Of a stretch of DNA of 64,000 nucleotides, positions 1,124-33,003 are shown piece by piece. The stretch is taken from contig JBMYQB010000005.1 in assembly GCA_049600935.1 (NCBI GenBank), forward strand, positions 1,436-65,435, in the 5' to 3' direction. The stretch is from Poseidonia sp. Its GTDB lineage: Archaea > Thermoplasmatota > Poseidoniia > Poseidoniales > Poseidoniaceae. The stretch's first letter is position 1. Every line of letters starts with the position of its first letter. The translations under genes were made by a program, and so were the position numbers. A model generated the notes under the pieces. That model was not told the DNA's origin and ran no database searches. It was given only the letters and a program-made list of their open reading frames with translations.

Positions 1124-4100
1124 TCACTTACCGCCGAAAAAATCCTTCATCCGATCTTCAAGGCTGCCCTCACGGGCTGGGGCATCATCCGTCCCCATTT
1201 CCTCACGCAGGCTCGCGAGTCGACCGCTCGCAGATGCGTCGGTTTCTTCCTCCTCAATTTCTTGAATCGATTCAATCACTTCAATGGTGGATTCGAGCGC
1301 TGCTATGTTCTGTTCATCCTCAACCTCTGGTACCTCTTCGCCCTGGTCCTCGGTATCGGGCTGGATTTGGATGTCATCCACGGGCTCAGAAGAGGGAGTC
1401 TGGTTTGAATCGGTTTGCGTCGAAGCGGTGTTTTCTGAGCGCTTCCTACCAACCGGTTTGAGTTGCTTTGTTGGGGATTGAAGAACACCGAGGAGCCACG
1501 ATAGCGCCAAGACCAATCCTGCTACACCCACAATCCATCCCACATCGTTGGTGGATACGGCGAGGACGCTTTCTGTTTTGTAGTACGAACTCATGGAATT
1601 ATCCTCAGGGTCGTCGTCGATGTCAAATGGTACGCTGCACCCAAGCGTTGCGGTTATCTTCTCATCTCGCTCGATACTCTTTGGATTTTCAATGAAGACC
1701 AGCGGAGCGTATTCTGAATAAGCGATGTCAACGATGTAGGTCGTTGACCAACCGCCAGCGGCCTCAACCCTCAACTCGCACACCGCTTCTGAGAGTAAGG
1801 TGTAACCGCTCCGTTTGATGCCAACCGTGATGTCGCCGTCGGTGGTCAAGGAACTGATGCCAATGTTCCAACCGGTTTCTCGTGCTATGGCCTCTTCCTG
1901 AACGGTTTCGAGTTCACGACCGTATTGATCGTAGGCACTCAATTCAATCGTGAACAGTCCTGCATCTGGGTCCCAATTCACCACGCTGATGTTCACAGTT
2001 TCCGAGGTTCCTGCTGATATCTCGTAAACGTCCTTGTCAAGTTCAATGCGTTCTCCGGAACTCGTGACCGAGGTGAACACGACTTTGAGCGGTTCGTGTT
2101 CGCCAGCCTCCATGGTACACGAAGCAACAGGACCGTCAAGTGTTGCTTGGCCGAGCGAATCAAACACGTTGCCAATGTAAGTGCACGAGACGGCACTGTT
2201 TGGGTATTGACGGGCAACGACGTAGATGGAGAGATTTCCATTCTCGTTCTGCGTGGAAAAACTGATGAGGTGTTCGCCGGTGTTAGATGGTTGGTCAAAG
2301 GTCAACATGTTGTCGTTCGTCAAGGTTGGAAGGTCACCATCAAACACGACGGTATCGTTACCCTCAACAGCAAAGGACAGGCTCTGTTGGCTTCCAACAA
2401 ATCCATCAAAGACAGGACTTTGAGTGAACACCACTGCGCTGTATCCAACTTCAATATTGTGAGACAAAATTCCCAGCAACGGATGGTTGACGTTCACGGT
2501 GAGGAGGAAACGCTGTTGATTCCACGTGCTTGATGGGAGCAGGGACAATGGCAAGCCTGTGACCTCACCCGGTGCGAGAATGACCTGTGTTCCTTGGGTC
2601 GTTGACCAACCTTCGGGTAGGCCGTCCACATCAACGGTGAGCATGGCAATATCGTTTCCCCTGTTTTCTATCCACGCGGTTGGGAAACCCCCCATGTCAT
2701 TGACATTCCATGTTCCTCTGTGGTCGATGACGATGTTTGGAGATGCTCCAACACGCACCGGAATTTCCTCGACCACGAGCCCGCTGGTGTCGTTCCCTGT
2801 GATCCTAATTCGAAGGACACCGACTTCACCAGCAACGGCGTCCGTTGGCGGTTGAACATGAACATCGAAGGTCGTTGTCGCAAACGGTGCGACATCCTCG
2901 GCGTCATCTGGTAGGGTGATATTCCAACCTGCGCCAGCTTTTGCAAAATACGGCCGCTCGTAGGCGTTTCCGGTATGAACGAGTTCAAACGTGAGATTTT
3001 CACCTGCCGGGTCGACTTCGAGATCGGCATCGGTCAAATTCAATCGCCATCCAGATACGGCATCTACATTGACCAGAAGCGATGTTTGTCCGATGCTGTA
3101 CCCGTTTACTAGATGTTCAAGGGTGATGTTCACCATCGTAGTTGCCCATGCATTGTTCGGCACATCGATGGAGAAGTTGACGTGGACCGTGCCGTTGATT
3201 TCAACCGACGCCGTCTCAACAGAGGTTGCGGTCCACGCAGAAGTATCCTGGTCAAAGGCGTGGATTTGCAAGAGGGGGTTAAGCGTCAGTTCATCGGCTG
3301 CATTACCCAAATTCGTGAGATTGAATCCGAAGGTCAACACATCACCCGGTTGGCCAGACGCTTCTGTTCCGTTGGTGGCTACAACCGCCCATTCATGGCT
3401 GGGAGCCGCTTGAACAGGGACCAAGATGCTGTCAAAAACACCGTCACCACCCAGCGAGGTCCATGTAAAGATGATGTCAAACGGCGTAAGGGCTGGGACC
3501 TCTTCCGACAACATGACATCCACCGTGCCAATACCGGTTGAGCGGGCGCCAAGCGTTTTCTGCGGGTCGAAATAGGTGAAACTCACCTCGGGGTTGAACG
3601 ATGGGTCCGCTGTCTCAACAGATGCCGTGAGGTCAAAGGTATCCTGTCCATTACCTGGGTTCTCGAGGAAGAGCAAGAATCGGTGTGCTTCGCTGACGTT
3701 GAGCGAAAGGGGTTGCCCTGGCGGAGGGGGCGTAGGTTCGATGAGGTTGAGATTGGCTCTGAAGACTTGCAGGACCTGCAGGCTGATGTTGATGGTGGCA
3801 TCCGCATCGTTGGCGTCGACATCAGAAAATGCGTGTCGCTTGGGTACGGGATTTTGGGGGAGTTGGAGCATAAGGTCCCCGCTAATGAGATTGCCCGGCG
3901 TGCCATGTGCCTCAAGGTTGGTTCCGTTGATGCTGAAATCACCTGTGGCCGACCATACCCAGTCCGGTTGGAGCATGTCCATGCTGCTCATGCTCCATTG
4001 GGCCGTGCCGGAAGACGGCGCTATCCCCTCAAAAGACCAGGTCAGTAGGGTGTCTGGAAGCGACCGGTGGTGGGTGGGCGTTGCAACAAATTTTTGCGCA

Positions 4101-6877
4101 GTGAAGGTGAACGGCATGGATTCACAAAGTGCATCTTCTCCGCTTCCCATGCACAGCGTGAGTGTGGTTTGGGTCGATGAGCCATAACTCACCGAGCCAG
4201 GGGTTGGAAGGTGTGCGAACAGCTCTTTTGATTCACCCGGGGCCAGGGTTATGCTGAACAGTTCTTGCCCGGAATGGTCGTGTATGGAGGGGGATCCTCC
4301 CCATGAGGGAGCCGTCCACGTGATGGAAGTGGTGGATTCAGCCGCATTTCCAAGGTTCTCCACCATGAACCACGCCTTTGCTGTTTGACCGGGACGACCC
4401 TGCCCTGCGGATGTGTTCATTCCTGTTGCTCCGGTCAGGTCGAGACCTCGGGTCCGGAACACATCTAGTTGAATGTCCATGGTCGTGTTGACGCTTGGGT
4501 CAGACACGAGCGACAGCAGGAAGGAAACGGTGCCTGATGCATCACCCAGCGCTGTTGAGGGTACGGTGGCATCGAACACCACCGATTGGACCACGTCGGG
4601 TGTCAGTTCAGGTGTCAAGTCTTGATTGGCTGCACTTTCAAAGGTCCAATCGTCTGGTAGATTTGAGGTGTCGTAGGTGAGGGACCATGTTGCGGTGCGT
4701 GAACCGGTTGCCATGAGTTCAACGGAGACTTGCTGCGAGGTGCCTGGCGGTATGCGGGGCGTCTCCAGCGGGCCGGTCATTTCAGCGAGATAGGGTTCAA
4801 CGACGCTGAAGGAGGCCGATGCCCTGTTGTTGTCTTCTCGCTGCTCTGTAATGTTCTGATTGACATCAAGCACCAACTCAAATTCATGCACGCCTAACTC
4901 AGCCACGAACTCAGCCGTAAAGGTGAGCGGGCCACCTTCTCCAGAGGGTGCAACGGGTTCACTGGATGTGAAACGTTCTCGGGTCAATTCAACACCGTTC
5001 ATGATGATGGCTGCATCAATATCTTCGTCGGCTTCTCCTGTGCCGACGTTAGCAAACTGTCCGGTGACGGTGACCGTATCGCCCGGGTCGGCTTGGGCTG
5101 GATTGAACGAAAGTCCCCGGTTATCCAAGGACGGCGCAAGGTCGGGACCCTGGTTGGAAACCAACGTGTCGCCATACAGCACATCGAGGTGGCCGTCGCC
5201 GTCAACGTCACCGAGGGCTGGGGCCGTCCACACTCGATGAGGCATGCTGAGGGGTGTTGACCATGCAGTATTGATGTCAGCTGAGGCTCCCGTGTCCCCG
5301 TCAAAGGCCCAGAACCGACGGCCAAAGCCAACCAGAACCTCGGGGGTCCCTTCTCCGTCAATGTCCAACCAAAACGGGGGAGAGGCTGCGATTTCATCGT
5401 TGTCGTTACCAGCACCTCGTTGCAAGTCTCGAGTCCACTCCGTAACCGGTGTGCTGTCTGAAATGTCGGTGCAACCGAGCATGCCTTTTCGGTTGAAACT
5501 GACCGTGGATTCAGAATACCAGGTGACCCAGCACAATCGGTCGTCGATGCCGTCATCATCGGTATCGATGGCCAACGGCTGTGCGTCAGCATAGCCGTTC
5601 TGCGCTCGGAAATTGAACAGTTCAGTGGTTGACGTCAACTCCATGCCGATGAACCGTGCCCCACTTCCAGATTGACGTCCGTTGGCGTCGGTGGGGACGG
5701 TCAAGATCATTTCTGGAGCACTGTCCTGGTCCAACTGAACAATGACAGGCCCGGGCAACCTCAGCCGTGGAGAGTCGGAATCCGTATCCGTCCCTTGGAC
5801 GGCGACCCTTTCCCAGTCGAGTGAGCCGGTTCCGCCGTCAATTTTCCAAACCCACATGTTACCGGAATCTCCGTCGATTGTGGTGAGCAAGACGGACGTT
5901 GTACTGCCGTCCAACTGCGCCCAAACGGGGTCGGATGGATGGGTGCCTCGGTCAAGGGTGATGCTCCAGTCCTCTTGCGAAGGTTGTGCGTTGGTGAGGG
6001 TGTAGGCGTTCACCTTGACGAGTGGATTGTTGTTCGGGTCGTCGACCACAGCTAACACCAATTCCGGTGTCCCGTCAAGTTCCAGGTCCGCAAGCAACGG
6101 TTGCGTGACCGCTTTGTGGTCGCTGTTGGCCGTGGCAAAATGAGGCGAAGGCGATCCAATCCGGACATCAGCATCGCTGTAGGACCAAACCAGTTCATTG
6201 CTGTGGCCTGATGTTTGCCAGTTTGATTCTGTGCACGTGAGACGAGGCGACCACACATCGATGTTGAGCGCACTTTGCGTATCGTAGACCACCACAATTT
6301 CTGGATGTTCATCACCATCGATGTCGTGAATCATGGGAGTGGAGCGTATGGCTTCGGTGGTGCCGAGGCTAACCCGCCACGCAATTTTCGCATCGTTTCC
6401 TGAGACGATGTTAAGGAAGCTTTCACGTGAACCGTCAGAGAGTTCACTGGAAATCATCACGGGGAAGAGCGTGCCAGCGCCGCAGCGTTCCAGTGCAGCC
6501 TCCGAGGCGCTCACACTGGCAGAAAAATCCCCGATGACCGAGCCATATGCGTCACTCTCGGATTGGTCGGTGAATACCTGCCAGTTGACAACAGGGTGCT
6601 CCAATGTCCCCAGCGTTGACACGTTGTCGACGCTCCCTTCTCCGGGTCCGCCGTCAGGCCCGTGTGCGGGAACCGTTTGGTTGTGCGTTGGCGTTCGAGC
6701 GTACTGAGGCCACGGTTGATCGTGGCCTTCCCACGTTGTTCCCGTGTGTTTCGGGTTGTGTTCATCCAAGAGCGTAGGCGGAGGAGCCAGCGGTGTTATC
6801 AAGACACCAATCATCAACAGGGCCATCAACAGGGCAGGGTAGTTACGCCCTGCCGTATGGTCTCGCCCTGTGGACAT
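1124..6877 (-). CDS. giant cell-surface protein (1917 aa) with an FG-GAP/VCBS-like beta-propeller, a CARDB-like module, many Ig-like segments, a C-terminal TM anchor and an acidic tail
   Basis: N-terminal hydrophobic segment ALLMALLMIGVLITPLAPPP. Repeated Ca-binding blade motifs: DIDGDEHPEIVVVYD, DLELDGTPELVLAV, DIDGEGTPEVLVGFG, DVDGDGHLDVLYGD. CARDB-like stretch: DTVTVTGQFANVGTGEA...DVNQNITEQREDNN. Dense N-x-S/T sequons. TM helix VGWIVGVAGLVLALSWLLGVL, followed by a D/E-rich tail of about 120 aa. GGTGA lies 6 nt upstream of the ATG. Confidence 0.85.
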   Translation of the reverse strand: MSTGRDHTAGRNYPALLMALLMIGVLITPLAPPPTLLDEHNPKHTGTTWEGHDQPWPQYARTPTHNQTVPAHGPDGGPGEGSVDNVSTLGTLEHPVVNWQVFTDQSESDAYGSVIGDFSASVSASEAALERCGAGTLFPVMISSELSDGSRESFLNIVSGNDAKIAWRVSLGTTEAIRSTPMIHDIDGDEHPEIVVVYDTQSALNIDVWSPRLTCTESNWQTSGHSNELVWSYSDADVRIGSPSPHFATANSDHKAVTQPLLADLELDGTPELVLAVVDDPNNNPLVKVNAYTLTNAQPSQEDWSITLDRGTHPSDPVWAQLDGSTTSVLLTTIDGDSGNMWVWKIDGGTGSLDWERVAVQGTDTDSDSPRLRLPGPVIVQLDQDSAPEMILTVPTDANGRQSGSGARFIGMELTSTTELFNFRAQNGYADAQPLAIDTDDDGIDDRLCWVTWYSESTVSFNRKGMLGCTDISDSTPVTEWTRDLQRGAGNDNDEIAASPPFWLDIDGEGTPEVLVGFGRRFWAFDGDTGASADINTAWSTPLSMPHRVWTAPALGDVDGDGHLDVLYGDTLVSNQGPDLAPSLDNRGLSFNPAQADPGDTVTVTGQFANVGTGEADEDIDAAIIMNGVELTRERFTSSEPVAPSGEGGPLTFTAEFVAELGVHEFELVLDVNQNITEQREDNNRASASFSVVEPYLAEMTGPLETPRIPPGTSQQVSVELMATGSRTATWSLTYDTSNLPDDWTFESAANQDLTPELTPDVVQSVVFDATVPSTALGDASGTVSFLLSLVSDPSVNTTMDIQLDVFRTRGLDLTGATGMNTSAGQGRPGQTAKAWFMVENLGNAAESTTSITWTAPSWGGSPSIHDHSGQELFSITLAPGESKELFAHLPTPGSVSYGSSTQTTLTLCMGSGEDALCESMPFTFTAQKFVATPTHHRSLPDTLLTWSFEGIAPSSGTAQWSMSSMDMLQPDWVWSATGDFSINGTNLEAHGTPGNLISGDLMLQLPQNPVPKRHAFSDVDANDADATINISLQVLQVFRANLNLIEPTPPPPGQPLSLNVSEAHRFLLFLENPGNGQDTFDLTASVETADPSFNPEVSFTYFDPQKTLGARSTGIGTVDVMLSEEVPALTPFDIIFTWTSLGGDGVFDSILVPVQAAPSHEWAVVATNGTEASGQPGDVLTFGFNLTNLGNAADELTLNPLLQIHAFDQDTSAWTATSVETASVEINGTVHVNFSIDVPNNAWATTMVNITLEHLVNGYSIGQTSLLVNVDAVSGWRLNLTDADLEVDPAGENLTFELVHTGNAYERPYFAKAGAGWNITLPDDAEDVAPFATTTFDVHVQPPTDAVAGEVGVLRIRITGNDTSGLVVEEIPVRVGASPNIVIDHRGTWNVNDMGGFPTAWIENRGNDIAMLTVDVDGLPEGWSTTQGTQVILAPGEVTGLPLSLLPSSTWNQQRFLLTVNVNHPLLGILSHNIEVGYSAVVFTQSPVFDGFVGSQQSLSFAVEGNDTVVFDGDLPTLTNDNMLTFDQPSNTGEHLISFSTQNENGNLSIYVVARQYPNSAVSCTYIGNVFDSLGQATLDGPVASCTMEAGEHEPLKVVFTSVTSSGERIELDKDVYEISAGTSETVNISVVNWDPDAGLFTIELSAYDQYGRELETVQEEAIARETGWNIGISSLTTDGDITVGIKRSGYTLLSEAVCELRVEAAGGWSTTYIVDIAYSEYAPLVFIENPKSIERDEKITATLGCSVPFDIDDDPEDNSMSSYYKTESVLAVSTNDVGWIVGVAGLVLALSWLLGVLQSPTKQLKPVGRKRSENTASTQTDSNQTPSSEPVDDIQIQPDTEDQGEEVPEVEDEQNIAALESTIEVIESIQEIEEEETDASASGRLASLREEMGTDDAPAREGSLEDRMKDFFGGK

Positions 6878-7143: not shown

Positions 7144-7698
7144 ATGTACAAGGTCGTAACCAAGGAAGACACCATCCGCATCCCAGCGGAATACATGCGC
7201 AAAGGTCAGTCTCTTGACCAGCACATTGACCGTTTGTCAATGGATGCTTTTGAGGGTAAATTCGATGCTGAAAATCGCTTTGTTCTCGTGACCAACAATC
7301 ACAAAACCATCGGCCGAGGGCGTATTATTCACGGCGATGGTGCCATTTACCAGCGTGTTCAATTCGACGCCGTTCTTTTCTGCATGGACGACCAAGAAGT
7401 CGTTGAGGGTGCCGTCTCCGAAGTGAACGAATTTGGTGCCTTCGTTCGAATCGGCCCCATGGAAGCCCTTCTCCACAAATCGCAAATCATGGATGAACCC
7501 GTTGACATCAACATCGGTGCCAACAAAATCACAGGACGCCAAACCGGTCGTGAATTGTCCATTGGTTCCTTTGTCCGAGCCCGAATCGTTTCCCTTTCGC
7601 CCGATACCTCTGACCCACGTCGTTCAAAGATTGGATTGACGAGCAAGCAAGACGGCCTTGGTTCTCCGGGTTGGAAGAAAAACGGAGGCGGTGAGTGA
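7144..7698 (+). CDS. rpo7: DNA-directed RNA polymerase subunit E' (Rpo7), S1-domain protein
   Basis: MYKVVTKEDTIRIPAEY..., S1-like VEGAVSEVNEFGAFVRIGPMEALLHKSQI. GAGGTGA lies 4 nt upstream of the ATG at 7144 (the ORF track begins at 7120). First gene of the conserved rpoE'-spt4-S24e-S27ae order. Confidence 0.9.
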   Translation: MYKVVTKEDTIRIPAEYMRKGQSLDQHIDRLSMDAFEGKFDAENRFVLVTNNHKTIGRGRIIHGDGAIYQRVQFDAVLFCMDDQEVVEGAVSEVNEFGAFVRIGPMEALLHKSQIMDEPVDINIGANKITGRQTGRELSIGSFVRARIVSLSPDTSDPRRSKIGLTSKQDGLGSPGWKKNGGGE

Positions 7699-7700
7699 AG

Positions 7701-7904
7701 ATGGTGAAGAATCCCTTTGCCTGCGGCGAATGCCATTTGGTTCTCAACGACGGTGTTGACCAATGTCCACGCCACCCGTCTGCCAATGTATCCTCTGACT
7801 GGACTGGCTACGTTATCATCATTCAGCCCGAGCGCTCGGAAATCGCTGAGCGACTCAAAGTGGAACAACCCGGCAAATATGCTTTGAAAGTGAACATCCG
7901 ATGA
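7701..7904 (+). CDS. spt4: transcription elongation factor Spt4 (RpoE'')
   Basis: Zinc ribbon ACGECHLV...CPRHP, then SDWTGYVIIIQPERSEIAERLKV..PGKYALKV. The start is the ATG at 7701 or the GTG at 7695; the GTG option overlaps the rpo7 stop. Confidence 0.85.
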   Translation: MVKNPFACGECHLVLNDGVDQCPRHPSANVSSDWTGYVIIIQPERSEIAERLKVEQPGKYALKVNIR

Positions 7905-7914
7905 AGGTGAGATC

Positions 7915-8268
7915 ATGGAAATTAAAGAACGAACCGAAAACAAAATTCTGAACCGAGTTGAACTTTCATTCAGTTGGAAGCATGACACCAAATCCACGCC
8001 TTCCCGCAAGGAAGTCATCGACCTTGTTCAGACGCTCGAACCAGGTGCAAACCGAGACCTCATCGTCGTCAAGGACTGCTCCACCCGATTTGGGCAACCC
8101 CTCACCACGGGAACGGCTTACATCTATGGTTCACAAGAAGCGATGGCCGTTGAACCTGGCTACATTCACAAGCGACATGAGGATCTTCGAAGTTCCAGCG
8201 CCAGTGAAGCCTCTGCTGAAGAAGCTCCTGCAGAAGAGCCTACCAAAGAAGAAGGAGGCGATGAATGA
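7915..8268 (+). CDS. rps24e: 30S ribosomal protein S24e (eS24) with an acidic C-terminal tail
   Basis: [19 protein letters not shown]...[12 protein letters not shown]...[28 protein letters not shown] lies 4 nt upstream of the ATG. Confidence 0.9.
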
Positions 8269-9387: not shown

Positions 9388-9462
9388 GGTTCATGAAGCG
9401 GCCGCCTGTATGTGAATGCTCGTCTGGGTCATCTCAAAATAGGACCCGCCCGAGATTCTGTC

Positions 9463-10416
9463 ATGGACGGGGAGCGTGTTGTACTCATCGCGGTGAATCA
9501 GCGGGACATCGCCAGCACGAATCAGGCTGATATCCTACGTGAACTGGATGCATGGAAGAAGATGCCCGCCGTTGAAGGGAATCCTGCCTATGCCTTGGAC
9601 CATGTTCGAATGCTCTACCTTCCCGACGGTTTGTTGTTTGAAGATCATCTTGACCAGCGTTGGAAGGATGCAACGGGTGAAACGGTCTCTGAAATCATCT
9701 TTCCATCTCGGCATGTCGCCGCCAGCGGCAAACCATCCTTGACCCTCCACCCAATTGGTGTGCCTCATCTACCACTCAATGAACAAGGTCCATACGGCGG
9801 TCATGGAGGTTCTGCCCCACTGCCTTCGACTCGCCTTGCGCCATGGTGGAAGATGTTGTTGGAGCGAGCCACCAATAATGCCTCCGTTAAGGGCTTTGAC
9901 CTCTCGTTGGAAGTCACCCATCACGGGCCGACTGTTGGCGTTCCATGTTTGTTCATCGAAGTGGGCTCCACCGAAGCCACATGGGGCCATGAGGGAGCTG
10001 CTCGAGTTCTTGCCAACATCATACGAGACGGGCTTCTCCAATCCTCAGAAACTGCTTGGGACGCAGACCGTCATCAAGGTGAACTGGTTTTGGTCACGCT
10101 TGGAGGTGGTCATTATGCACCCAGAGCCAACCAACTCGCAGCCTTGGACGGTGTTTGGCTCGGCCATATGCTGGCCACCTATGCGTTGCCGTTCGAACAA
10201 GGCGATGATGGACAAATCCTGGGGTCGTGGAAACAATCCATCCTTGCGGCCCTTTCTTCCACACGAGCATCCTTTCCCGGGGGCGAGATTGTTTGCTCAA
10301 TGGACAAAAAAGCATTCAGAGGTTGGCAGCGTCAAGCCATCAGAGCGTTGTTGGAAGAGGAGGGTGTCCCCCTCCTAACAACACGGCAAATTAAGATGCA
10401 ACTGGGTCTCATATGA
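9463..10416 (+). CDS. dtdA: D-aminoacyl-tRNA deacylase, archaeal type (DtdA)
   Basis: FPSRHVAASGKPSLTLHPIG and FDLSLEVTHHGPTVGVPCLFIEVGSTEATW match DtdA (PF04414) signatures. The ORF track starts at the GTG at 9412; I prefer the ATG at 9463 (MDGERVVLIAV), but this is unproven. Confidence 0.8.
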   Translation: MDGERVVLIAVNQRDIASTNQADILRELDAWKKMPAVEGNPAYALDHVRMLYLPDGLLFEDHLDQRWKDATGETVSEIIFPSRHVAASGKPSLTLHPIGVPHLPLNEQGPYGGHGGSAPLPSTRLAPWWKMLLERATNNASVKGFDLSLEVTHHGPTVGVPCLFIEVGSTEATWGHEGAARVLANIIRDGLLQSSETAWDADRHQGELVLVTLGGGHYAPRANQLAALDGVWLGHMLATYALPFEQGDDGQILGSWKQSILAALSSTRASFPGGEIVCSMDKKAFRGWQRQAIRALLEEEGVPLLTTRQIKMQLGLI

Positions 10417-10455
10417 GCACCCGCACAAAGGGTCAAAGAGCGGCTTGAATGTGGG

Positions 10456-11439
10456 ATGTTCATGGTGGGTTGGTTCTCTAAGTTCGTCGTGGCCGCCACC
10501 GTCCGCATGCCGAAATGGTTTGTCCGATGGGTCAGCCGTCGCTATGTGGCTGGAGCATCGCTTGACGAGGCAGTTGCTGTGATGAAACGGCTCACGCAAG
10601 AAGGAGCCTGCTTCACCATCGATGTCCTTGGAGAGGAAATCTCTTCCATGGATGAAGCGACGTTTTTCCTCGAAGAATATATTCGCGTCATGAAGGCGAT
10701 AAAGGAACACGATTTTGATGCCAACATCAGCATCAAGCCCACCGCTTTCGGTTTGCTTATTGACCCTGAACAAGGCTTGCAGAACATTCGAAAACTGGTT
10801 AAAATGGCGGCTGAAGAGAACATGTTCGTTCGTTTGGACATGGAGGACCATCGTGTCACGACCGATACCATCAACGTCGTCATTACGCTCCATAACGAAG
10901 GCCTCACGAATGTTGGGACTGTTCTCCAGGGCCGTCTGTTCCGAACACTTTCTGACATTGGCGACCTTGAGACGACACTTGGACCGAATGCAGACTATCG
11001 AATCTGCAAAGGTATCTACCTTGAACCAGAGGACATTTCCTTCACAACATACCAAGATATCGTTGACGGGACCAACGCGGCCATCGATCGGATGTTTGAG
11101 GCCGGTGCATACGTCGGTGTGGCCTCTCACGACCTCCCTGTCATCAACCATACCTTATCGGCACTGAAAGCGCACAACATGGGGCCCGGCATCGATGACC
11201 CTCGAACCAATGCGGGCGCTGCACGGCACCACAAGGGGCCAGGGTATGAATTCCAATTGCTCCTTGGCGTGAGGGGACCGTTGCGCCGCCGTTTGCTCAA
11301 AGAGGGACATCGGACGCGAGTCTACATTCCCTACGGAGAAAAATGGTATGAATACAGCATTCGCCGTTTGAAAGAAAATCCAACCATCGGCTCCCATGTC
11401 GCCAAGGCGTTCTTGATGCCGTGGACAAACCGTCCGTGA
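10456..11439 (+). CDS. proline dehydrogenase (monofunctional PutA-like)
   Basis: RICKGIYLEPE..., GVASHD..., YEFQLLLGVRGPLRRRLLKEGHRTRVYIPYGEKWYEYSIRRLKENP is the classic proline dehydrogenase C-terminus. Confidence 0.85.
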   Translation: MFMVGWFSKFVVAATVRMPKWFVRWVSRRYVAGASLDEAVAVMKRLTQEGACFTIDVLGEEISSMDEATFFLEEYIRVMKAIKEHDFDANISIKPTAFGLLIDPEQGLQNIRKLVKMAAEENMFVRLDMEDHRVTTDTINVVITLHNEGLTNVGTVLQGRLFRTLSDIGDLETTLGPNADYRICKGIYLEPEDISFTTYQDIVDGTNAAIDRMFEAGAYVGVASHDLPVINHTLSALKAHNMGPGIDDPRTNAGAARHHKGPGYEFQLLLGVRGPLRRRLLKEGHRTRVYIPYGEKWYEYSIRRLKENPTIGSHVAKAFLMPWTNRP

Positions 11440-12213
11440 TCACTTGCGTTTCTTTTTGTTTGTACGCTTTTTCGACGTATTGGGGTTCACGCCTTTCTTC
11501 ACATGTTCTTTGGGACGTTCAGGATTGGGATTGAAGCCAAGTCGCCCTTCCTTCCATGCCTGTCGTCGCTCACGTGGGGTGCGCGGCGTGAAGTGCTCTG
11601 GATTGGGCGGTTCGTGGAGGTACATTCGCTTGATATCTGGGGCCTTGACCGTACCTCGGAGTGTTCGTCCTGCCCCTGTATGGATGGCCCGAATTCGCCA
11701 GGTTTCACCGTTGTGATCCATCAAATGTGAGCCCGTAAAGGTGGTTTCCTGCGGAACGACGAGAACATCCGCCGTGGAGTCTTCGCCCCGTGTCAGTGTG
11801 AGTTTCACACGAACCATGTCGGTACGCAGCGCCGTGATTCTCGCAATGTTCGTTGCGCTATCTGAGGACACATGGCGCTCTTCATTGGTTTCAATTTGAT
11901 GAATTTTCCAAAGTTTTTCATCCTCTTCAAATACATCACCAACAACAAATTCCTCATCGGCATCAACCACGAGAACAACACGTTCGGATTTAGGGCCCTC
12001 GGTTAGAATAAACGGGATATTCCTGGGAGGTGGCGGACGAAATTCAATGGTGTGGACATGCTGACACTCCATGCATCGTAACATGAAATCGGCACCGTCG
12101 CCCACCTTCTTTTCTCGAAGAATATCGTGAGCCGTGAGTTCATCACATGCTGGACAGTGGGAAGCATTGTCGAGGACTTCTTCCTCTTCGTCCCATTCAT
12201 CCACCTCTTCCAT
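11440..12213 (-). CDS. conserved archaeal-type zinc-ribbon protein with a polybasic tail (possibly the HVO_0476-like zinc finger family)
   Basis: Acidic N-terminus, then CPACDE...x...CMECQHVH (C-x2-C/C-x2-C). The C-terminus KKGVNPNTSKKRTNKKKRK is strongly basic. The family assignment is from memory only. Confidence 0.55.
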   Translation of the reverse strand: MEEVDEWDEEEEVLDNASHCPACDELTAHDILREKKVGDGADFMLRCMECQHVHTIEFRPPPPRNIPFILTEGPKSERVVLVVDADEEFVVGDVFEEDEKLWKIHQIETNEERHVSSDSATNIARITALRTDMVRVKLTLTRGEDSTADVLVVPQETTFTGSHLMDHNGETWRIRAIHTGAGRTLRGTVKAPDIKRMYLHEPPNPEHFTPRTPRERRQAWKEGRLGFNPNPERPKEHVKKGVNPNTSKKRTNKKKRK

Positions 12214-28236: not shown

Positions 28237-28300
28237 CACTTTCACTTTCAACGACTGGGTCTTGAATAAGCATCCCTTGCTTCTCGGGTCTCGTAGCGTT

Positions 28301-28570
28301 ATGGGTCGAAGTGTGCCGCCATGGCGAACGCGAGTGGAAGACGAGTTGCAACACTTGATGCCCTATCGTCGGGCGCTGTCTTGTGTGGATCAAGCGGCGT
28401 TTGATGCGCTGCTCAATGAGGTGCGACAGCGTCGTTCTGCGGGAGGTCTCCTCCCCGCATTGAACACATGGCAGCCCATGGTGCTCAACATGCTGGTTGG
28501 ATTGATGGCGCAAGTCTCGCACCTAACGGCCCGAATAGAAGCACTTGAGGAACGGCGTAGCGATGATTGA
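28301..28570 (+). CDS. small hypothetical protein (89 aa) translationally coupled to polB
   Basis: ATG at 28301. Its stop (28568-28570) overlaps the polB ATG at 28563 (ATGATTGA). The C-terminus is helical (VSHLTARIEALEERR). No family recognised. Confidence 0.5.
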   Translation: MGRSVPPWRTRVEDELQHLMPYRRALSCVDQAAFDALLNEVRQRRSAGGLLPALNTWQPMVLNMLVGLMAQVSHLTARIEALEERRSDD

Positions 28571-31016
28571 GGGGTGGCTTCTTGATGTTCATGAAAACGA
28601 GGCCAACACCGGCATGGTGGCGTGGGTGGTTGACCTCCATGGCGCTGCGCATCGGTGTGATGTTCCCTGGCGCCCCACCCTTCACGTTCACGCAACACAT
28701 GAACAACTGGATCGTTTGGAACACTGGTTGATGCAACCCGAAATCCAACTCCGCTTCGGCATCGGTGATGTCCGAATGACACGTGCTCGTTTAGATTTGG
28801 AGGCAACGGGTCAAGTCGACGTGCTCGAAATCGGATTGCGTGCGTATCAACATCTTCGCGGATTGGCCGAACACATTGAAGCCAGAGGCGATTTTCACCG
28901 ATTCAAACTTTATTCAGTCGATGCGCACCTTGCTCAACGTTTCTTGAACGAACACGGTTGCATTCCATTTCAACGGGTTCGTTGGTCAGATGCATCGCCA
29001 GAGGACTTGGAGCCCTTGGAGGAATGCACTACGGACAACGGTGTCTATCCGCCGTTCCATGTTGTACAGATGCGGTTTGAACGTGGCCACGGCTCAACGC
29101 TTCCCTCGCTTGAACGCACCGTTGAAGTCATTCATTTGAACAGCGTTCACGAACCGGGTTTGGCCTCGTTTTCAGTCCCGCTTTCGATCACGCTCAAGCG
29201 TCAAAATTTTCCGTCCATGTCGGCCATGCTCATGGCCTTTCAAGACGCTCTTGCGTCCATGAATCCAGACATTGTTATGTCGACGGGCGGCGATCAGCGT
29301 TGGCTTCCGTGGCTGGTCGAGCAGGCCACGCTGCACGATGTTCCCCTTCAACTCGGGCGCACCACGGACGTGCTCGCTCAGTCCACCCATCAACGTACGA
29401 TTCATTCCTACGGCCAAACCCGTCATCGACACGGGTCGTTCTTCTTCAAAGGACGTCTCCATCTTGATATCAAGAACAGTTTCATCGTGAACGAGGGCGG
29501 TCTTGCTGGTTTGTTTGAATTGGCCCAACACTCGCGACAATCAGCTCAAATCATCTCTCGCCTTTCACCTGGTTCAGTCATCAGTGCCATCCAAATGCGG
29601 GTGGCCATGGACGACGGTGTGCTCGTACCTTGGAAGAAAAATCGGCCTGAAGACACCAAATCGGCACTGGATTTGCTTCATGCCGACCGAGGGGGCCTCT
29701 ACCTTGACAGCCGGCCAGGCGTTCATGCATCGGTCATCGAACTTGATTTTGCGAGCCTGTTCCCGAGCATCATCGCCACCCGTAATATCTCACCTGAAAC
29801 CTTGAATTGCTCTTGTTGCCAACCGGTGGCGCAAGCGGGTTCGCGAGGGGTGGTCCCTTTGCATCCCGATGAAGCCGCTCAAGAATTCCGAGAACGAGCA
29901 GTGTTGTCGGCCTTTGGTCACGGGTTGTTCCCTCTTTCGCACGAAAAAGCGCTTTCCGTTCCAGGCCTCAACATGCACACCTGCGGACGAACACACGGTT
30001 TTCTCGGTCGTGTTGTGGCACCCATCATTGAACGACGACGAGAACTGAAGCGTCAACGTCAGCACAAAGGGGACGCCTTTGACCTGCGGCAGAATGCCCT
30101 CAAGTGGCTTCTCGTGACCTGTTTTGGATACACGGGCTATCGCAATGCTCGCTTTGGACGAATCGAGGCCCATGAAGCGATCTGTGCGTGGTCTCGGGAC
30201 CTCTTGTTAACCACCATTGAAGAGGCTCAGAAAGACGGGTGGGATGTCCTTCACGCCATCGTTGACTGCGTTTGGCTTTCGGATACACGGGGGCGTACGA
30301 AGCATCAACAACGGGTGGACGCCGAAGCGTTTGCCAGCCGCATCTCTGAACAGGTCGGTATTCCGCTTGAGTTTGAAGCGCACTACGACTTCATCGCCTT
30401 TTTGCCGAGCCGAATGCACGGTTCAGGTTCCCTGACAAAATACTGGGCCTGTACCGAAGGGGAATTCAAAGTGCGAGGCATTGAGTTACGCCAACATTCC
30501 ACGCCCCGATGGGTAAGTGAACTTCAGCAAAAGGGATTGGAGTTGTTAGCCGAAGGTGAGCGTATCGAAGGACGTCCTTCCCTTCAGGCACAACGGTCGG
30601 TTTTGGCGCACTATCGGAGGGAACTTCAGCGCTTGAAGACGAACCAGGTATCGTTGTCAGACCTCGTCATGACACGACGAACGACCCGTTCCATTGAGGA
30701 CTACCGAGTTCAGAATTTGACCTATGGCGCTTTGATGCGGGCCCACGGTCTCGGGCATGAGGTTCCCCCTGGGGGCAAGGTTCGGTATGCGGTCGTGAAC
30801 CGTTCAGCCACCGAACCGATGGAACGCGTTTTGCTGGCCGAAGAAATTGAGGCCTTGGGCCGTCAACACGCCGGTTGCCCTCTGCACTATGCAGAACTTG
30901 CAGAGCGAGCCATTTGGGCCCTGCTTGCTCCGTTTGGCTGGACTACGGACCAACTGCGAAACGACGGTCTTCAACCGAGTCTTCTGGAATTTATTCATCC
31001 TGGTGGCGCAGCGTAA
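28563..31016 (+). CDS. polB: family B DNA polymerase, divergent (PolB2/Dpo2-like): exonuclease motifs degenerate, polymerase motifs A and B present, motif C atypical
   Basis: Motif A ELDFASLFPSII. Motif B KWLLVTCFGYTGY. KxY region SLTKYW plus RGIELRQHSTPRW. Motif C position reads HAIVDCVW where YxDTDx is expected. Exo I, II and III positions read VVQMRFE, GGDQRWLPWL and AQHSRQSA. All alignments are by eye. Confidence 0.85.
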   Translation: MIEGWLLDVHENEANTGMVAWVVDLHGAAHRCDVPWRPTLHVHATHEQLDRLEHWLMQPEIQLRFGIGDVRMTRARLDLEATGQVDVLEIGLRAYQHLRGLAEHIEARGDFHRFKLYSVDAHLAQRFLNEHGCIPFQRVRWSDASPEDLEPLEECTTDNGVYPPFHVVQMRFERGHGSTLPSLERTVEVIHLNSVHEPGLASFSVPLSITLKRQNFPSMSAMLMAFQDALASMNPDIVMSTGGDQRWLPWLVEQATLHDVPLQLGRTTDVLAQSTHQRTIHSYGQTRHRHGSFFFKGRLHLDIKNSFIVNEGGLAGLFELAQHSRQSAQIISRLSPGSVISAIQMRVAMDDGVLVPWKKNRPEDTKSALDLLHADRGGLYLDSRPGVHASVIELDFASLFPSIIATRNISPETLNCSCCQPVAQAGSRGVVPLHPDEAAQEFRERAVLSAFGHGLFPLSHEKALSVPGLNMHTCGRTHGFLGRVVAPIIERRRELKRQRQHKGDAFDLRQNALKWLLVTCFGYTGYRNARFGRIEAHEAICAWSRDLLLTTIEEAQKDGWDVLHAIVDCVWLSDTRGRTKHQQRVDAEAFASRISEQVGIPLEFEAHYDFIAFLPSRMHGSGSLTKYWACTEGEFKVRGIELRQHSTPRWVSELQQKGLELLAEGERIEGRPSLQAQRSVLAHYRRELQRLKTNQVSLSDLVMTRRTTRSIEDYRVQNLTYGALMRAHGLGHEVPPGGKVRYAVVNRSATEPMERVLLAEEIEALGRQHAGCPLHYAELAERAIWALLAPFGWTTDQLRNDGLQPSLLEFIHPGGAA

Positions 31017-31773
31017 GAGCGCCAATGTTTGGCGGGGCTGTCGCCAGGGTGGGTCTTTTTTCGGTGAGACAAAAGCGTAATTGTGGGTCGATTTGGAGCG
31101 GCATCCATGGACCTTGCACACCGGATTTACGATGCTTGAGGTGCAAGACCCTCCGTCGTCTTCCGTGCCATGCCCCTTCAAGGTGGTTCTGTGCGTGTCG
31201 GTGAAGGTGTTGGAGCAAACGTGAATCGGTATACGGTGAATGGACCGTTCCTGTGATGGCAATGACGGCTGCGTGATGTTGCTGTGCAAGTTGGCGTAAA
31301 ATGTGCACGTGCCGCCTTAGCAGCGTTCTGGATTCCAGTCGCGAAACGGCATCATCGCCGTGCATGGCCAGCAAACCGTCAAGCACCACCATCGGTGAAC
31401 GGGTGATGGCCAGTTCATGCGGCAATCGTTCAATTTGGCGGTCGAGTTGGTGCAACGTGAACCCCCGACTCAGGTACAAGCGACCGAGGCACGCCTCAAC
31501 ATCGGCCCCCAGAGCTTCGAGAATCGGAATGAATCGCGAGGGGTCAATTCGGCAGGCGCCGTCCACCCAGTGAACAACCTCGCCCTGAACCAAGGCGTGG
31601 GCCACCCAGTGCTCGGCCACGCGTCGCATGCTCTTTCCTGCACGGCCAGGGCCGCTCAGTTGGTAGAGTTGGCCACGAACGGGCTGAATGGACATCGGGT
31701 CAATCCCTCGTCGTCGTCGAATCAATCCGCGTGCAGCATCAATGGCCGTATTCGTTGGTCCCATGGGAATCAT
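30991..31773 (-). CDS. RecA-fold ATPase, RadB/ImuA-like recombinase paralog
   Basis: Walker A LSGPGRAGKS, Walker B-like SPMVVLDGLL, RecA-core-like AAVIAITGTV and RRRVLHLKHRKSG. 260 aa. The 3' end overlaps polB by 26 nt. Confidence 0.65.
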   Translation of the reverse strand: MIPMGPTNTAIDAARGLIRRRRGIDPMSIQPVRGQLYQLSGPGRAGKSMRRVAEHWVAHALVQGEVVHWVDGACRIDPSRFIPILEALGADVEACLGRLYLSRGFTLHQLDRQIERLPHELAITRSPMVVLDGLLAMHGDDAVSRLESRTLLRRHVHILRQLAQQHHAAVIAITGTVHSPYTDSRLLQHLHRHAQNHLEGAWHGRRRRVLHLKHRKSGVQGPWMPLQIDPQLRFCLTEKRPTLATAPPNIGALTLRHQDE

Positions 31774-31872
31774 TGAACGACGCTGTAGGAGGTCATCCTA
31801 TCTTGCGAAGACCCCTGTGTTTAACTGAAGAGACACATCAACTTCAAACACCGCTGGCACCGATGGGCGAAC

Positions 31873-33003
31873 GTGGTAGGCGAACAAAACGTGGCCGAAC
31901 CGCTCGGGCCAAGGATTCTCATTCACTGCGATTTGGATGCCTTCTTTGCTGCGGTGGAAACCATCCACCATGGATTTGATGAAGCCGTGCCGTTGATCAT
32001 CGGTTCAGACCCGAAGCAAGGTCGTGGACGAGGCATTGTTTCGACCTGCAATTACGCAGCACGAGCCTACGGAATCCGCTCAGCCATGCCGGTTTCTGAG
32101 GCGTGGCGTCGTTGCCCAGCGGCCCCGTTTGGACCCGCCATCTACATCCGAGGTACCCGTGGACTCTACAGCAGGGCGAGTCGAAAAGTGATGGCGTGTC
32201 TGCAGCAACCTGCCAACCTGTTTGAAAAAGCGAGCATTGACGAGGCGTATCTTGATGTCACCGAGACCGTCGAAGGCGACTGGGATGCTGCGCTTGCGCT
32301 TGCAAAGCACTTGCAACATCAAATCCTTGAGGAAGTCAACCTCACCGCATCCTTTGGTATTGGCCCCACGCGATTGGTTGCGAAAATGGCCAGTGAGGTG
32401 AACAAACCCAACGGTATTTTCAGGGTCATGCCCGACGAGGTGAATGCCTTTTTCGAAGGTCGTTCGCTGCGCGACATCCCGGGTATCGGCCCCAAACGGG
32501 CAACGCAACTGGCTGAGTGGGGCTACACCACGGCCGACGAACTTTACGCCCTGGGTGAACTCACGTTGTCAAGCCTCGCAGGTGAGCGATTTGCAACATG
32601 GTTCATGCGGGTGCTTGACGGTGAGAGCAGCAATGTCGTCAGTCCACTTCGCAGCAGGAAATCCATTGGAAAAGAGCATACGTTTGAGCGTGATGTAGAG
32701 AATCATGAAGTCGTGCTTGAGCGGCTTGAGGAACTGGTTTCTCTTGTCATGGAACGGGCCACGACCTTGGGTGTATCGGGTCGTTTGGCCGAGGTAAAAA
32801 TACGATACACGGGATTTGAAACCCACACGTCGGGCAGAAGCATCCCGGTGGCCATGGACGACGAAACGGTGTTCAAACGATTAGCAAAGGGCCTGTTTGC
32901 CACAAATATTCGTCCTGAAAACCGGGTCCGATTAATTGGCTTCCGTCTCGGCCAACTGGAAATCCCTCCCTCTCGGCAAACAACGCTGTTTGAGGAAGAA
33001 TAA
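31873..33003 (+). CDS. dinB: Y-family DNA polymerase IV (DinB/Dpo4-like), catalytic residues intact
   Basis: ILIHCDLDAFFAAVE and ASIDEAYLDVT carry the catalytic Asp/Glu; also FGIGPTRLVAKMAS and IPGIGPKRA (HhH). The start is the GTG at 31873 or at 31891; there is no in-frame ATG upstream of the active site. Confidence 0.9.
   Translation: MVGEQNVAEPLGPRILIHCDLDAFFAAVETIHHGFDEAVPLIIGSDPKQGRGRGIVSTCNYAARAYGIRSAMPVSEAWRRCPAAPFGPAIYIRGTRGLYSRASRKVMACLQQPANLFEKASIDEAYLDVTETVEGDWDAALALAKHLQHQILEEVNLTASFGIGPTRLVAKMASEVNKPNGIFRVMPDEVNAFFEGRSLRDIPGIGPKRATQLAEWGYTTADELYALGELTLSSLAGERFATWFMRVLDGESSNVVSPLRSRKSIGKEHTFERDVENHEVVLERLEELVSLVMERATTLGVSGRLAEVKIRYTGFETHTSGRSIPVAMDDETVFKRLAKGLFATNIRPENRVRLIGFRLGQLEIPPSRQTTLFEEE

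Follow-up and report, generated by a model that had tools for sequence, protein, structure and literature searches.

Does the group of four adjacent genes in this stretch of a Poseidonia sp. genome (64,000 nucleotides (nt) of contig JBMYQB010000005.1, hereafter the window) form a new four-part system for tolerating DNA damage, or a known system with a neighbour at its side? Poseidoniales are among the most abundant archaea of the sunlit ocean, and their lesion-bypass machinery bears on mutation supply under ultraviolet light. A preliminary description, made from the sequence alone, had reported a small open reading frame (ORF), a family B DNA polymerase, a RecA-fold ATPase and a Y-family polymerase, and had read them as a cassette with no described archaeal equivalent. 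Such an equivalent has been published, the PolB2-PPB2-iRadA mutasome, group 3b (PMC4104785, PMC11791011). We conclude with high confidence that the locus is this known archaeal mutasome in its Poseidoniales layout, made up of the small subunit PPB2, the polymerase PolB2 and the RecA-fold protein iRadA, and that the Y-family polymerase, DinB, lies outside the conserved module. The core three-gene system is already known; the promoter element, the longer form of DinB and the presence, absence or relocation of the module described below are side additions to it.

The three-gene core of the locus

An ORF and translation check found all four genes where they had first been placed, and the overlaps and the spacer reported between them were likewise confirmed in the sequence (Table 1). 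The PolB2 frame opens at TTG 28545; the conserved start is ATG 28563 (MIEGWLLD), a choice supported by P0066, a 99%-identical homologue that is also 817 amino acids (aa) long. This ATG overlaps the TGA of PPB2 by 8 nt (ATGATTGA), and the two genes appear to be translationally coupled behind a promoter with tandem ACTTTC hexamers. The end of PolB2 overlaps that of iRadA by 26 nt in convergent orientation, and iRadA is predicted to form its own transcription unit, separate from PPB2-PolB2. We compared 80 loci from species-representative genomes, together with loci from an exact protein look-up. Every Poseidoniales locus that holds enough sequence for the three genes shows the arrangement PPB2 > PolB2 >< iRadA, the 3' ends of the convergent pair overlapping, which argues that it is not due to chance. 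The other lineages analysed (Thermoplasmata, Methanomassiliicoccales, Bathyarchaeia, Methanoperedens, one Halobacteriota genome and several bacterial phyla) all have the order iRadA > PPB2 > PolB2, with the three genes adjacent in most of them.

Table 1 Features of the locus, in window positions
Feature	Positions	Strand	Description
Tandem hexamer element CACTTTCACTTTCAAC	28237-28252	+	directly after the dehydrogenase stop codon, 61 nt upstream of the PPB2 ATG
TGGGTCTT then AATAAGCA	28256-28272	+	possible TATA-like box, putative PPB2-PolB2 core promoter
PPB2	28301-28570	+	89-aa ORF, N-terminus MGRSVPPWR
PolB2	28563-31016	+	817 aa, predicted family B translesion (extender-type) polymerase, proofreading site absent
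PIP-box-like motif QPSLLEFI	30972-30995	+	PolB2 C-terminus, putative PCNA-binding site
iRadA	30991-31773	-	260 aa, Rad51/RadA-core protein
iRadA-dinB spacer	31774-31872		99 bp, divergent, conserved blocks
INFKHR relic	31837-31854	+	in-frame remnant of the extension of the longer DinB; stop codon TAA at 31822-31824 ahead of it
DinB (DNA polymerase IV)	31873-33003	+	GTG start, Y-family

The system was first predicted as an operon of PolB2, a ~90-aa helical protein (arCOG07300) and inactivated RadA paralogues, whose products were proposed to form a complex (Makarova, Krupovic and Koonin 2014, PMC4104785). Timinskas, Timinskas and Venclovas (2025) introduced the names PPB2 and iRadA for the partners, modelled a heteropentamer of PolB2, iRadA and three PPB2 for 40 species, and defined an N-terminal MGRT arm with Arg3 and Arg9 in PPB2 and a D(K/R) motif in PolB2; in their models the PolB2-iRadA contact resembles the Rad51 filament, and clamp-binding motifs are present in PolB2 or iRadA (PMC11791011). 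Poseidoniales operons are listed there as group "3b (PPB2-PolB2-iRadA)", with one modelled complex and its sequences; that published model, of a complex orthologous to the one expected here, has a ranking score of 0.81.

PPB2 of the window shares 66% identity with its published counterpart MBN29952 and also aligns with PPB2 of S. islandicus. Among 25 orthologues, M1, G2, R3, S4, V5, P6, W8 and R9 are invariant and form the best-conserved stretch of the protein, in agreement with the published arm, Arg3 and Arg9 included (PMC11791011). The predicted model displays a free N-terminal arm followed by helices 7-25, 28-46 and 57-88. PPB2 homologues carry PF26485 (DUF8156), a family of a newer Pfam release; our Pfam search of the window protein, run with a local copy that lacks this family, gave no match, and the model had no significant fold match in the PDB. 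As deposited, MBN29952, the PPB2 of the published group 3b model, starts with MRVEAEL, nine residues late, so that the MGRSVPxWR arm is missing, probably owing to a mis-called start in the database entry. An arm of this type is the key contact according to the very paper whose model used that entry (PMC11791011).

PolB2 matches Pfam DNA_pol_B (4e-20) and shares 70% identity with MBN29951, the PolB2 published for group 3b. Its hallmark motifs DFASLFPS, KWLLVTCFGYTGYRNARFG and IVD place it in the PolB2 clade, with the first Asp of motif C replaced (xxD), motif A intact and motif B in the variant form KWxLVxxFGYxGYRN. An exhaustive search agrees with this placement, with 280-1375 bits against PolB2 representatives and ~100 bits against Thermococcales PolB. 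ADRGG, motif A, motif B and IVD align with ADKGG, the corresponding motifs and IID of S. islandicus Dpo2 (E-value 3e-30), and the metal-binding D395 and D568 are invariant in 30 of 30 diverse PolB2 sequences. The D(K/R) motif is found as ADRGG (D375, R376), in which D375, G377 and G378 are invariant, and it is preceded by a nearly invariant PWKKN segment in the predicted iRadA-binding loop region. The polymerase had been called exonuclease-dead, and this holds: Exo II reads GGDQRWLP where proofreading enzymes read NGDSFDLP, its Asp being lost, and a Pfam search gave no match to the exonuclease model PF03104 (DNA_pol_B_exo1). At the C-terminus, [QKR]xxLxxF is conserved across Poseidoniales PolB2 of 49-99% identity, and PolB2 probably reaches PCNA through this motif, QPSLLEFI in the window.

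A further feature of the polymerase lies at residues ~416-474 (window ~29800-30000, plus strand), where C416 and C474 are invariant and C418 and C419 nearly so; PolB2 of the window has ~45 more residues between the conserved cysteines than S. islandicus Dpo2.

The third protein, iRadA, shares 63% identity (6e-118) with its published counterpart MBN29950. Its model (pLDDT 82) has a structured core at about residues 30-225 and no N-terminal domain, and its top Foldseek matches are the ATPase cores of DMC1, RAD51 and RadA (probability 1.0).

The ACTTTC promoter element

The element ahead of PPB2 contains two ACTTTC hexamers (28238-28249). A scan of the whole 64-kb window found the exact TTTCACTTTCA at the PPB2 site only. 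Copies with zero to three mismatches occur in 36 of 36 Poseidoniales loci, even where the flanks are unrelated, at 58-77 nt upstream of the PPB2 ATG, and the (C)TGGGTC block downstream of the hexamers is conserved in many loci as well as in the orthologous promoter of a longer dinB (see below). This conservation suggests a regulatory function for the tandem element. The near-match at 7885-7895 is in coding sequence, antisense to which lies a 219-aa ORF that is probably spurious.

We built a hexamer matrix from the PPB2-side sites only and applied it to the region upstream of iRadA. In iRadA orientation, 17 of 32 species loci scored at least 12, versus 1.9% of 310 control upstream regions (Mann-Whitney p = 7e-14), and scores of at least 16 were obtained in 8 species loci other than that of the window. 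Within a genome, the PPB2-side and iRadA-side copies share lineage-specific variants. The iRadA-dinB spacer has conserved blocks in the window and in L001, L007 and L013, and contains a clean tandem hexamer in L011, L020 and L021.

Outside Poseidoniales, a sense-strand ACTTTC[AG] is present 23-86 nt upstream of the first ORF in 13 of 32 archaeal PolB2 operons (L048, L051, L055, L057, L058, L065, L066, L069, L071, L073, L078, L083 and L084), for a background of 2.4% per 150-nt window; the loci are interrelated and these counts are not independent events. The operons with this single hexamer belong to Thermoplasmata, Methanomassiliicoccales, Methanoperedens and one Halobacteriota genome, and the hexamer is usually located ~20-24 nt upstream of a TATA-like box. 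Among bacterial PolB2 operons, one of eight has ACTTTC[AG] upstream. ACTTTC fits ANTTTC, the damage-responsive element of Sulfolobales, a hexamer bound by Orc1-2 upstream of damage-induced core promoters. For ANTTTC outside Sulfolobales, the searchable literature returned Sulfolobales papers only, and no Orc1/Cdc6 gene was found among the large ORFs of the window.

DinB and the sites without the module

DinB matches the Pfam families IMS, IMS_HHH and IMS_C, passes the NCBIfam Pol IV equivalog NF002677 (272.3 bits, cutoff 256) and retains the catalytic motifs DLDAFF and SIDE. As first reported, it is by all these signatures a catalytically intact Y-family Pol IV. Its C-terminus, RQ[TAS]TLFEEE (window 32974-33003, plus strand), is conserved across Poseidoniales and is closer to the bacterial beta-clamp motif QLxLF than to the archaeal PIP box; the best NCBIfam match of the protein is likewise a bacterial-type Pol IV equivalog.

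DinB had also been counted as a member of the cassette. The adjacency of PPB2, PolB2 and iRadA is indeed conserved, but that of DinB is limited to certain lineages: it adjoins the module in 15 of the 30 Poseidoniales species loci with enough flank, and adjoins 1 of 43 PolB2 loci of other lineages (Chitinophagales). Wherever DinB is adjacent, the genes for a 2-hydroxyacid dehydrogenase, a class I aminoacyl-tRNA synthetase and an MMPL protein are all present, and otherwise none of them is. Since DinB is adjacent in only about half of the Poseidoniales species and tracks these housekeeping flanks exactly, it appears to be a lineage-specific neighbour rather than a conserved fourth subunit. In the published Table S1, IMS occurs in 46, 2-Hacid_dh_C in 45 and tRNA-synt_1 in 42 of 95 group 3b operons, and IMS in 10 of 1728 operons outside this group (PMC11791011); the window neighbours IMS, 2-Hacid_dh_C, tRNA-synt_1 and Lactamase_B agree with the group 3b counts. 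In L092 (Chitinophagales, 2333-3553), DinB is divergent and ~400 bp upstream of iRadA-PPB2-PolB2. In L020, from one Poseidoniaceae genome, an insert of ~2.2 kb (9412-11664) separates PolB2 from iRadA.

We also scanned metagenomes with DinB as the seed and obtained 80 loci, of which ~36 have the window layout and ~40 have the order dehydrogenase > DinB > synthetase without the module. In the main module-free group, the dehydrogenase stop codon is followed by (C/T)ACTTTCACTTC, 8 nt and then GTGGGTC, a sequence orthologous to the PPB2 promoter. Here the hexamer element lies 66 nt upstream of the ATG of a longer DinB, which carries a conserved N-terminal extension of ~80 residues ending just ahead of the catalytic HCDLDAF. 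The extension, with the consensus F[ST]QPLE[DE]LPREF..EKLVYLTP.LEI..CEEYINFKH, is conserved at the protein level in 20 loci, and module-free loci that carry it include L110, L113, L116, L117, L121, L130, L131, L134, L135, L142, L144, L146 and L147; a Pfam search of the extension gave no match. The window DinB no longer has the extension, nor does a hexamer promoter directly precede it; only the INFKHR relic is left, identical at 20 of 20 nt to the extension coding sequence of L131. We considered whether GTTTAACTGAAG, between iRadA and dinB, is a pair of degenerate hexamers; this reading was dropped for the window clade, as the module-free loci favour a coding relic of the longer dinB.

Other sites differ in what remains. 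L171 is a window-type locus from which PPB2, PolB2 and iRadA are cleanly deleted, with ~210 nt between dehydrogenase and DinB that retain a remnant of the PPB2 promoter, the iRadA start codon and the iRadA-dinB spacer. In a second module-free subtype (L120, L153, L154 and L163), 74-77 nt separate the dehydrogenase from the HCDLDAF of DinB, which has no N-terminal extension and a single AATTTCA upstream of its ATG.

From the comparison of these sites, the three-gene module appears to behave as one discrete unit: some loci have it, others lack it and in others again it lies elsewhere, whereas DinB keeps its place. In the window lineage, the module sits exactly between DinB and what is the promoter of DinB in module-free relatives.

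These sites bear on the strongest alternative, in which the four genes form a translesion island: DinB would be a co-regulated partner that inserts opposite the lesion, PolB2 would extend, and their adjacency would be under selection. The longer DinB indeed lies 66 nt behind an orthologue of the PPB2 promoter in module-free relatives, the element is found before PPB2 and iRadA where the module lies elsewhere, and L011, L020 and L021 have the clean tandem hexamer between iRadA and dinB. In addition, the Y-family Dpo4 and then Dpo2 act in sequence on abasic sites in vitro. However, the adjacency is found in half of the Poseidoniales species loci and in a single locus elsewhere, and it coincides in 100% of cases with the housekeeping flanks. 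The module without DinB and DinB without the module occur at the same site, as does the clean deletion of L171, and the window DinB itself has lost its extension and its direct hexamer promoter. The link between the two states is also indirect, as we infer that module-free loci and loci with the module elsewhere occur in the same genomes. We therefore consider a selected four-gene island unlikely, and retain the three-gene mutasome with DinB as a neighbour.

Since the element lies before the mutasome genes and before the module-free DinB, one regulon for DinB and the mutasome is plausible. More broadly, and tentatively, it is possible that an ACTTTC-type element marks a damage-tolerance regulon well outside Sulfolobales, covering PPB2-PolB2, iRadA and the longer DinB in Poseidoniales and represented by a single hexamer elsewhere. 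Should an Orc1-2-like factor bind the element, this would imply a widespread archaeal DNA damage response of the Sulfolobus type and, in abundant archaea of the surface ocean, joint induction of DinB and the PolB2 mutasome. The hexamer that links the mutasome genes and DinB also offers a concrete way to search for a damage regulon in archaea other than Crenarchaeota.

Elsewhere in the window, a 1917-aa ORF (1124-6877, minus strand) has no Pfam match at E <= 1e-5. The 219-aa ORF (7359-8018, minus strand) is probably spurious, being antisense to a plus-strand run of small genes read from their translations, with no family search, as an RNA polymerase subunit and Spt4-like, S24e-like and S27ae-like proteins.

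Active sites and comparison with known systems

The RecA-fold protein had been described as a RadB/ImuA-like ATPase with an intact Walker A. The motif is real (GPGRAGKS), but the classification does not stand. The protein matches Pfam Rad51 weakly (25.9 bits, cutoff 22), scores 27.4 bits against the RadB equivalog TIGR02237 (cutoff 172.4), and falls far under the cutoffs of the RadB, RadA, DMC1 and RAD51 equivalogs alike. In close orthologues, the Lys and Ser/Thr of the P-loop vary (GPGHAGRG, GPGRAGSS, GPGRSGAS, GPGFAGDR); GK[ST] is retained by 9 of 32 distinct variants from Poseidoniales and by none of the 41 from elsewhere, and more distant iRadA, including MGIIb-like Poseidoniales, have a loop deletion of 3-4 residues. 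No close orthologue retains the catalytic Glu: all read HWxDGACR (DGAC) where RadA has DTEG. Given that close orthologues do not conserve Walker A and have all replaced this Glu, we assign the protein to iRadA rather than RadB or ImuA, probably with no ATPase activity. The P-loop of the window would then be the least decayed version of an inactivated site, and the protein may bind nucleotide without hydrolysing it. That it is instead an active RadB- or RadA-type ATPase, working in recombinational repair independently of the polymerase, would agree with its GPGRAGKS, its Walker B Asp and its weak RadB and Rad51 matches. This is very unlikely in view of the equivalog scores, the replaced Glu and a P-loop that varies even in near relatives; moreover, the gene always accompanies those of PolB2 and PPB2, and the protein lacks an N-terminal domain for DNA binding or oligomerisation.

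The disordered C-terminal tail of iRadA (residues ~228-257; window 30991-31100, minus strand) has a conserved Q-T-x-F-x-L, in which Q231 is nearly invariant, and ends in a terminal G.L.L.H; Q-T-x-F-x-L is no canonical PIP box.

The parallel with the bacterial ImuA-ImuB-DnaE2 cassette drawn in the preliminary description would make DinB an ImuB-like adaptor. The resemblance is formal and lies in the combination of a RecA fold, a Y-family member and a replicative-type polymerase that does not proofread. ImuB lacks the catalytic DxD and SxDE residues. The window DinB retains both and passes the Pol IV equivalog cutoff, the polymerase belongs to family B and not to family C, PPB2 has no Imu counterpart, and the module is conserved without DinB. 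An archaeal analogue of this kind is thus highly improbable, and membership in ImuABC proper is ruled out by the polymerase family and the intact DinB active site.

Equally improbable is that the family B polymerase is the replicative PolB of the organism or a dead pseudo-polymerase: motif A and the family B fold are intact, and the PolB2 family was once predicted to be inactive (PMC4104785), but the motifs are PolB2-specific, the bit scores strongly favour PolB2, both metal-binding Asp are invariant, Dpo2 is an active polymerase without exonuclease activity, and Euryarchaeota as a group replicate, according to the literature, with PolD and PolB3 (PMC4104785). Neither PolD nor a second PolB was found among the large ORFs of the 64-kb window.

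Some observations weigh against the assignment to the mutasome that we prefer. Its layout is convergent, unlike the usual co-directional operon; iRadA of the window still has a canonical Walker A as well as the Asp of Walker B; the region upstream of iRadA in the window clade, that is the spacer, scores 3.0 with the hexamer matrix and shows no clear hexamer; and the loss of the exonuclease is read at Exo II, as the Exo I and Exo III positions cannot be aligned reliably.

By orthology to the published models, PPB2 would act as a trimer whose N-terminal MGRS arm inserts between the polymerase and iRadA. PolB2 would be the exonuclease-dead catalytic subunit that extends primer ends beyond the lesion, and iRadA an inactivated Rad51-like adaptor held by a filament-like contact. 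DinB may be the inserter that precedes PolB2, in the role that Dpo4 has for Dpo2 in Sulfolobus. The lesion-bypass role first suggested for the locus is upheld for the three-gene core, a non-proofreading family B polymerase with a RecA-family partner. A literature search on DNA repair in Poseidoniales returned nothing relevant.

How does the locus compare with known systems? ImuA-ImuB-DnaE2 likewise combines a dedicated inactive RecA-fold protein with a non-proofreading polymerase of a replicative family for mutagenic bypass, but its polymerase is of family C, its adaptor ImuB is a dead Y-family protein and it has no equivalent of PPB2; the window DinB, by contrast, is predicted to be active and is not conserved with the module. 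The published analogies for the PolB2 mutasome are instead Pol V and Pol zeta (PMC11791011). The E. coli Pol V mutasome (UmuD'2C-RecA) has an analogous architecture: its polymerase is joined by a small subunit that oligomerises and inserts an N-terminal arm, and by a RecA-family protein, which binds via a filament-like motif. It differs in its family Y catalytic subunit, in its unrelated small subunits and in using RecA, the active cellular recombinase, rather than a dedicated inactive paralogue. Pol zeta (Rev3-Rev7 with Pol31 and Pol32) is also a multisubunit family B extender with an inactivated exonuclease that follows a Y-family inserter, although its accessory subunits are unrelated and none is Rad51-like.

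Closer to the window is the Dpo2 operon of S. islandicus (group 3a), with the same PPB2-PolB2-iRadA order and catalytic motifs that align. Dpo2 is damage-induced, has polymerase but no exonuclease activity and extends mispaired ends past a lesion; the induction involves Orc1-2. The hexamer upstream of the window operon is of the A[N]TTTC type, as in damage-responsive promoters of Sulfolobales. By contrast, iRadA of the window is on the opposite strand with a 3' overlap, its P-loop is far less degraded, the polymerase is ~260 aa longer and no Orc1-2 gene is nearby. Closest of all is the group 3b mutasome. The paper that defines it is silent on the convergent iRadA, the DinB neighbour and the promoter element, but the same three proteins are found in the same gene order with 63-70% identity. 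Shared, too, are the MGR[ST] arm of PPB2, the D(K/R) motif and xxD motif C of PolB2 along with its dead exonuclease, and, in iRadA, a Rad51 core that lacks the N-terminal domain. Between this mutasome and the locus of the window, we find no essential difference.

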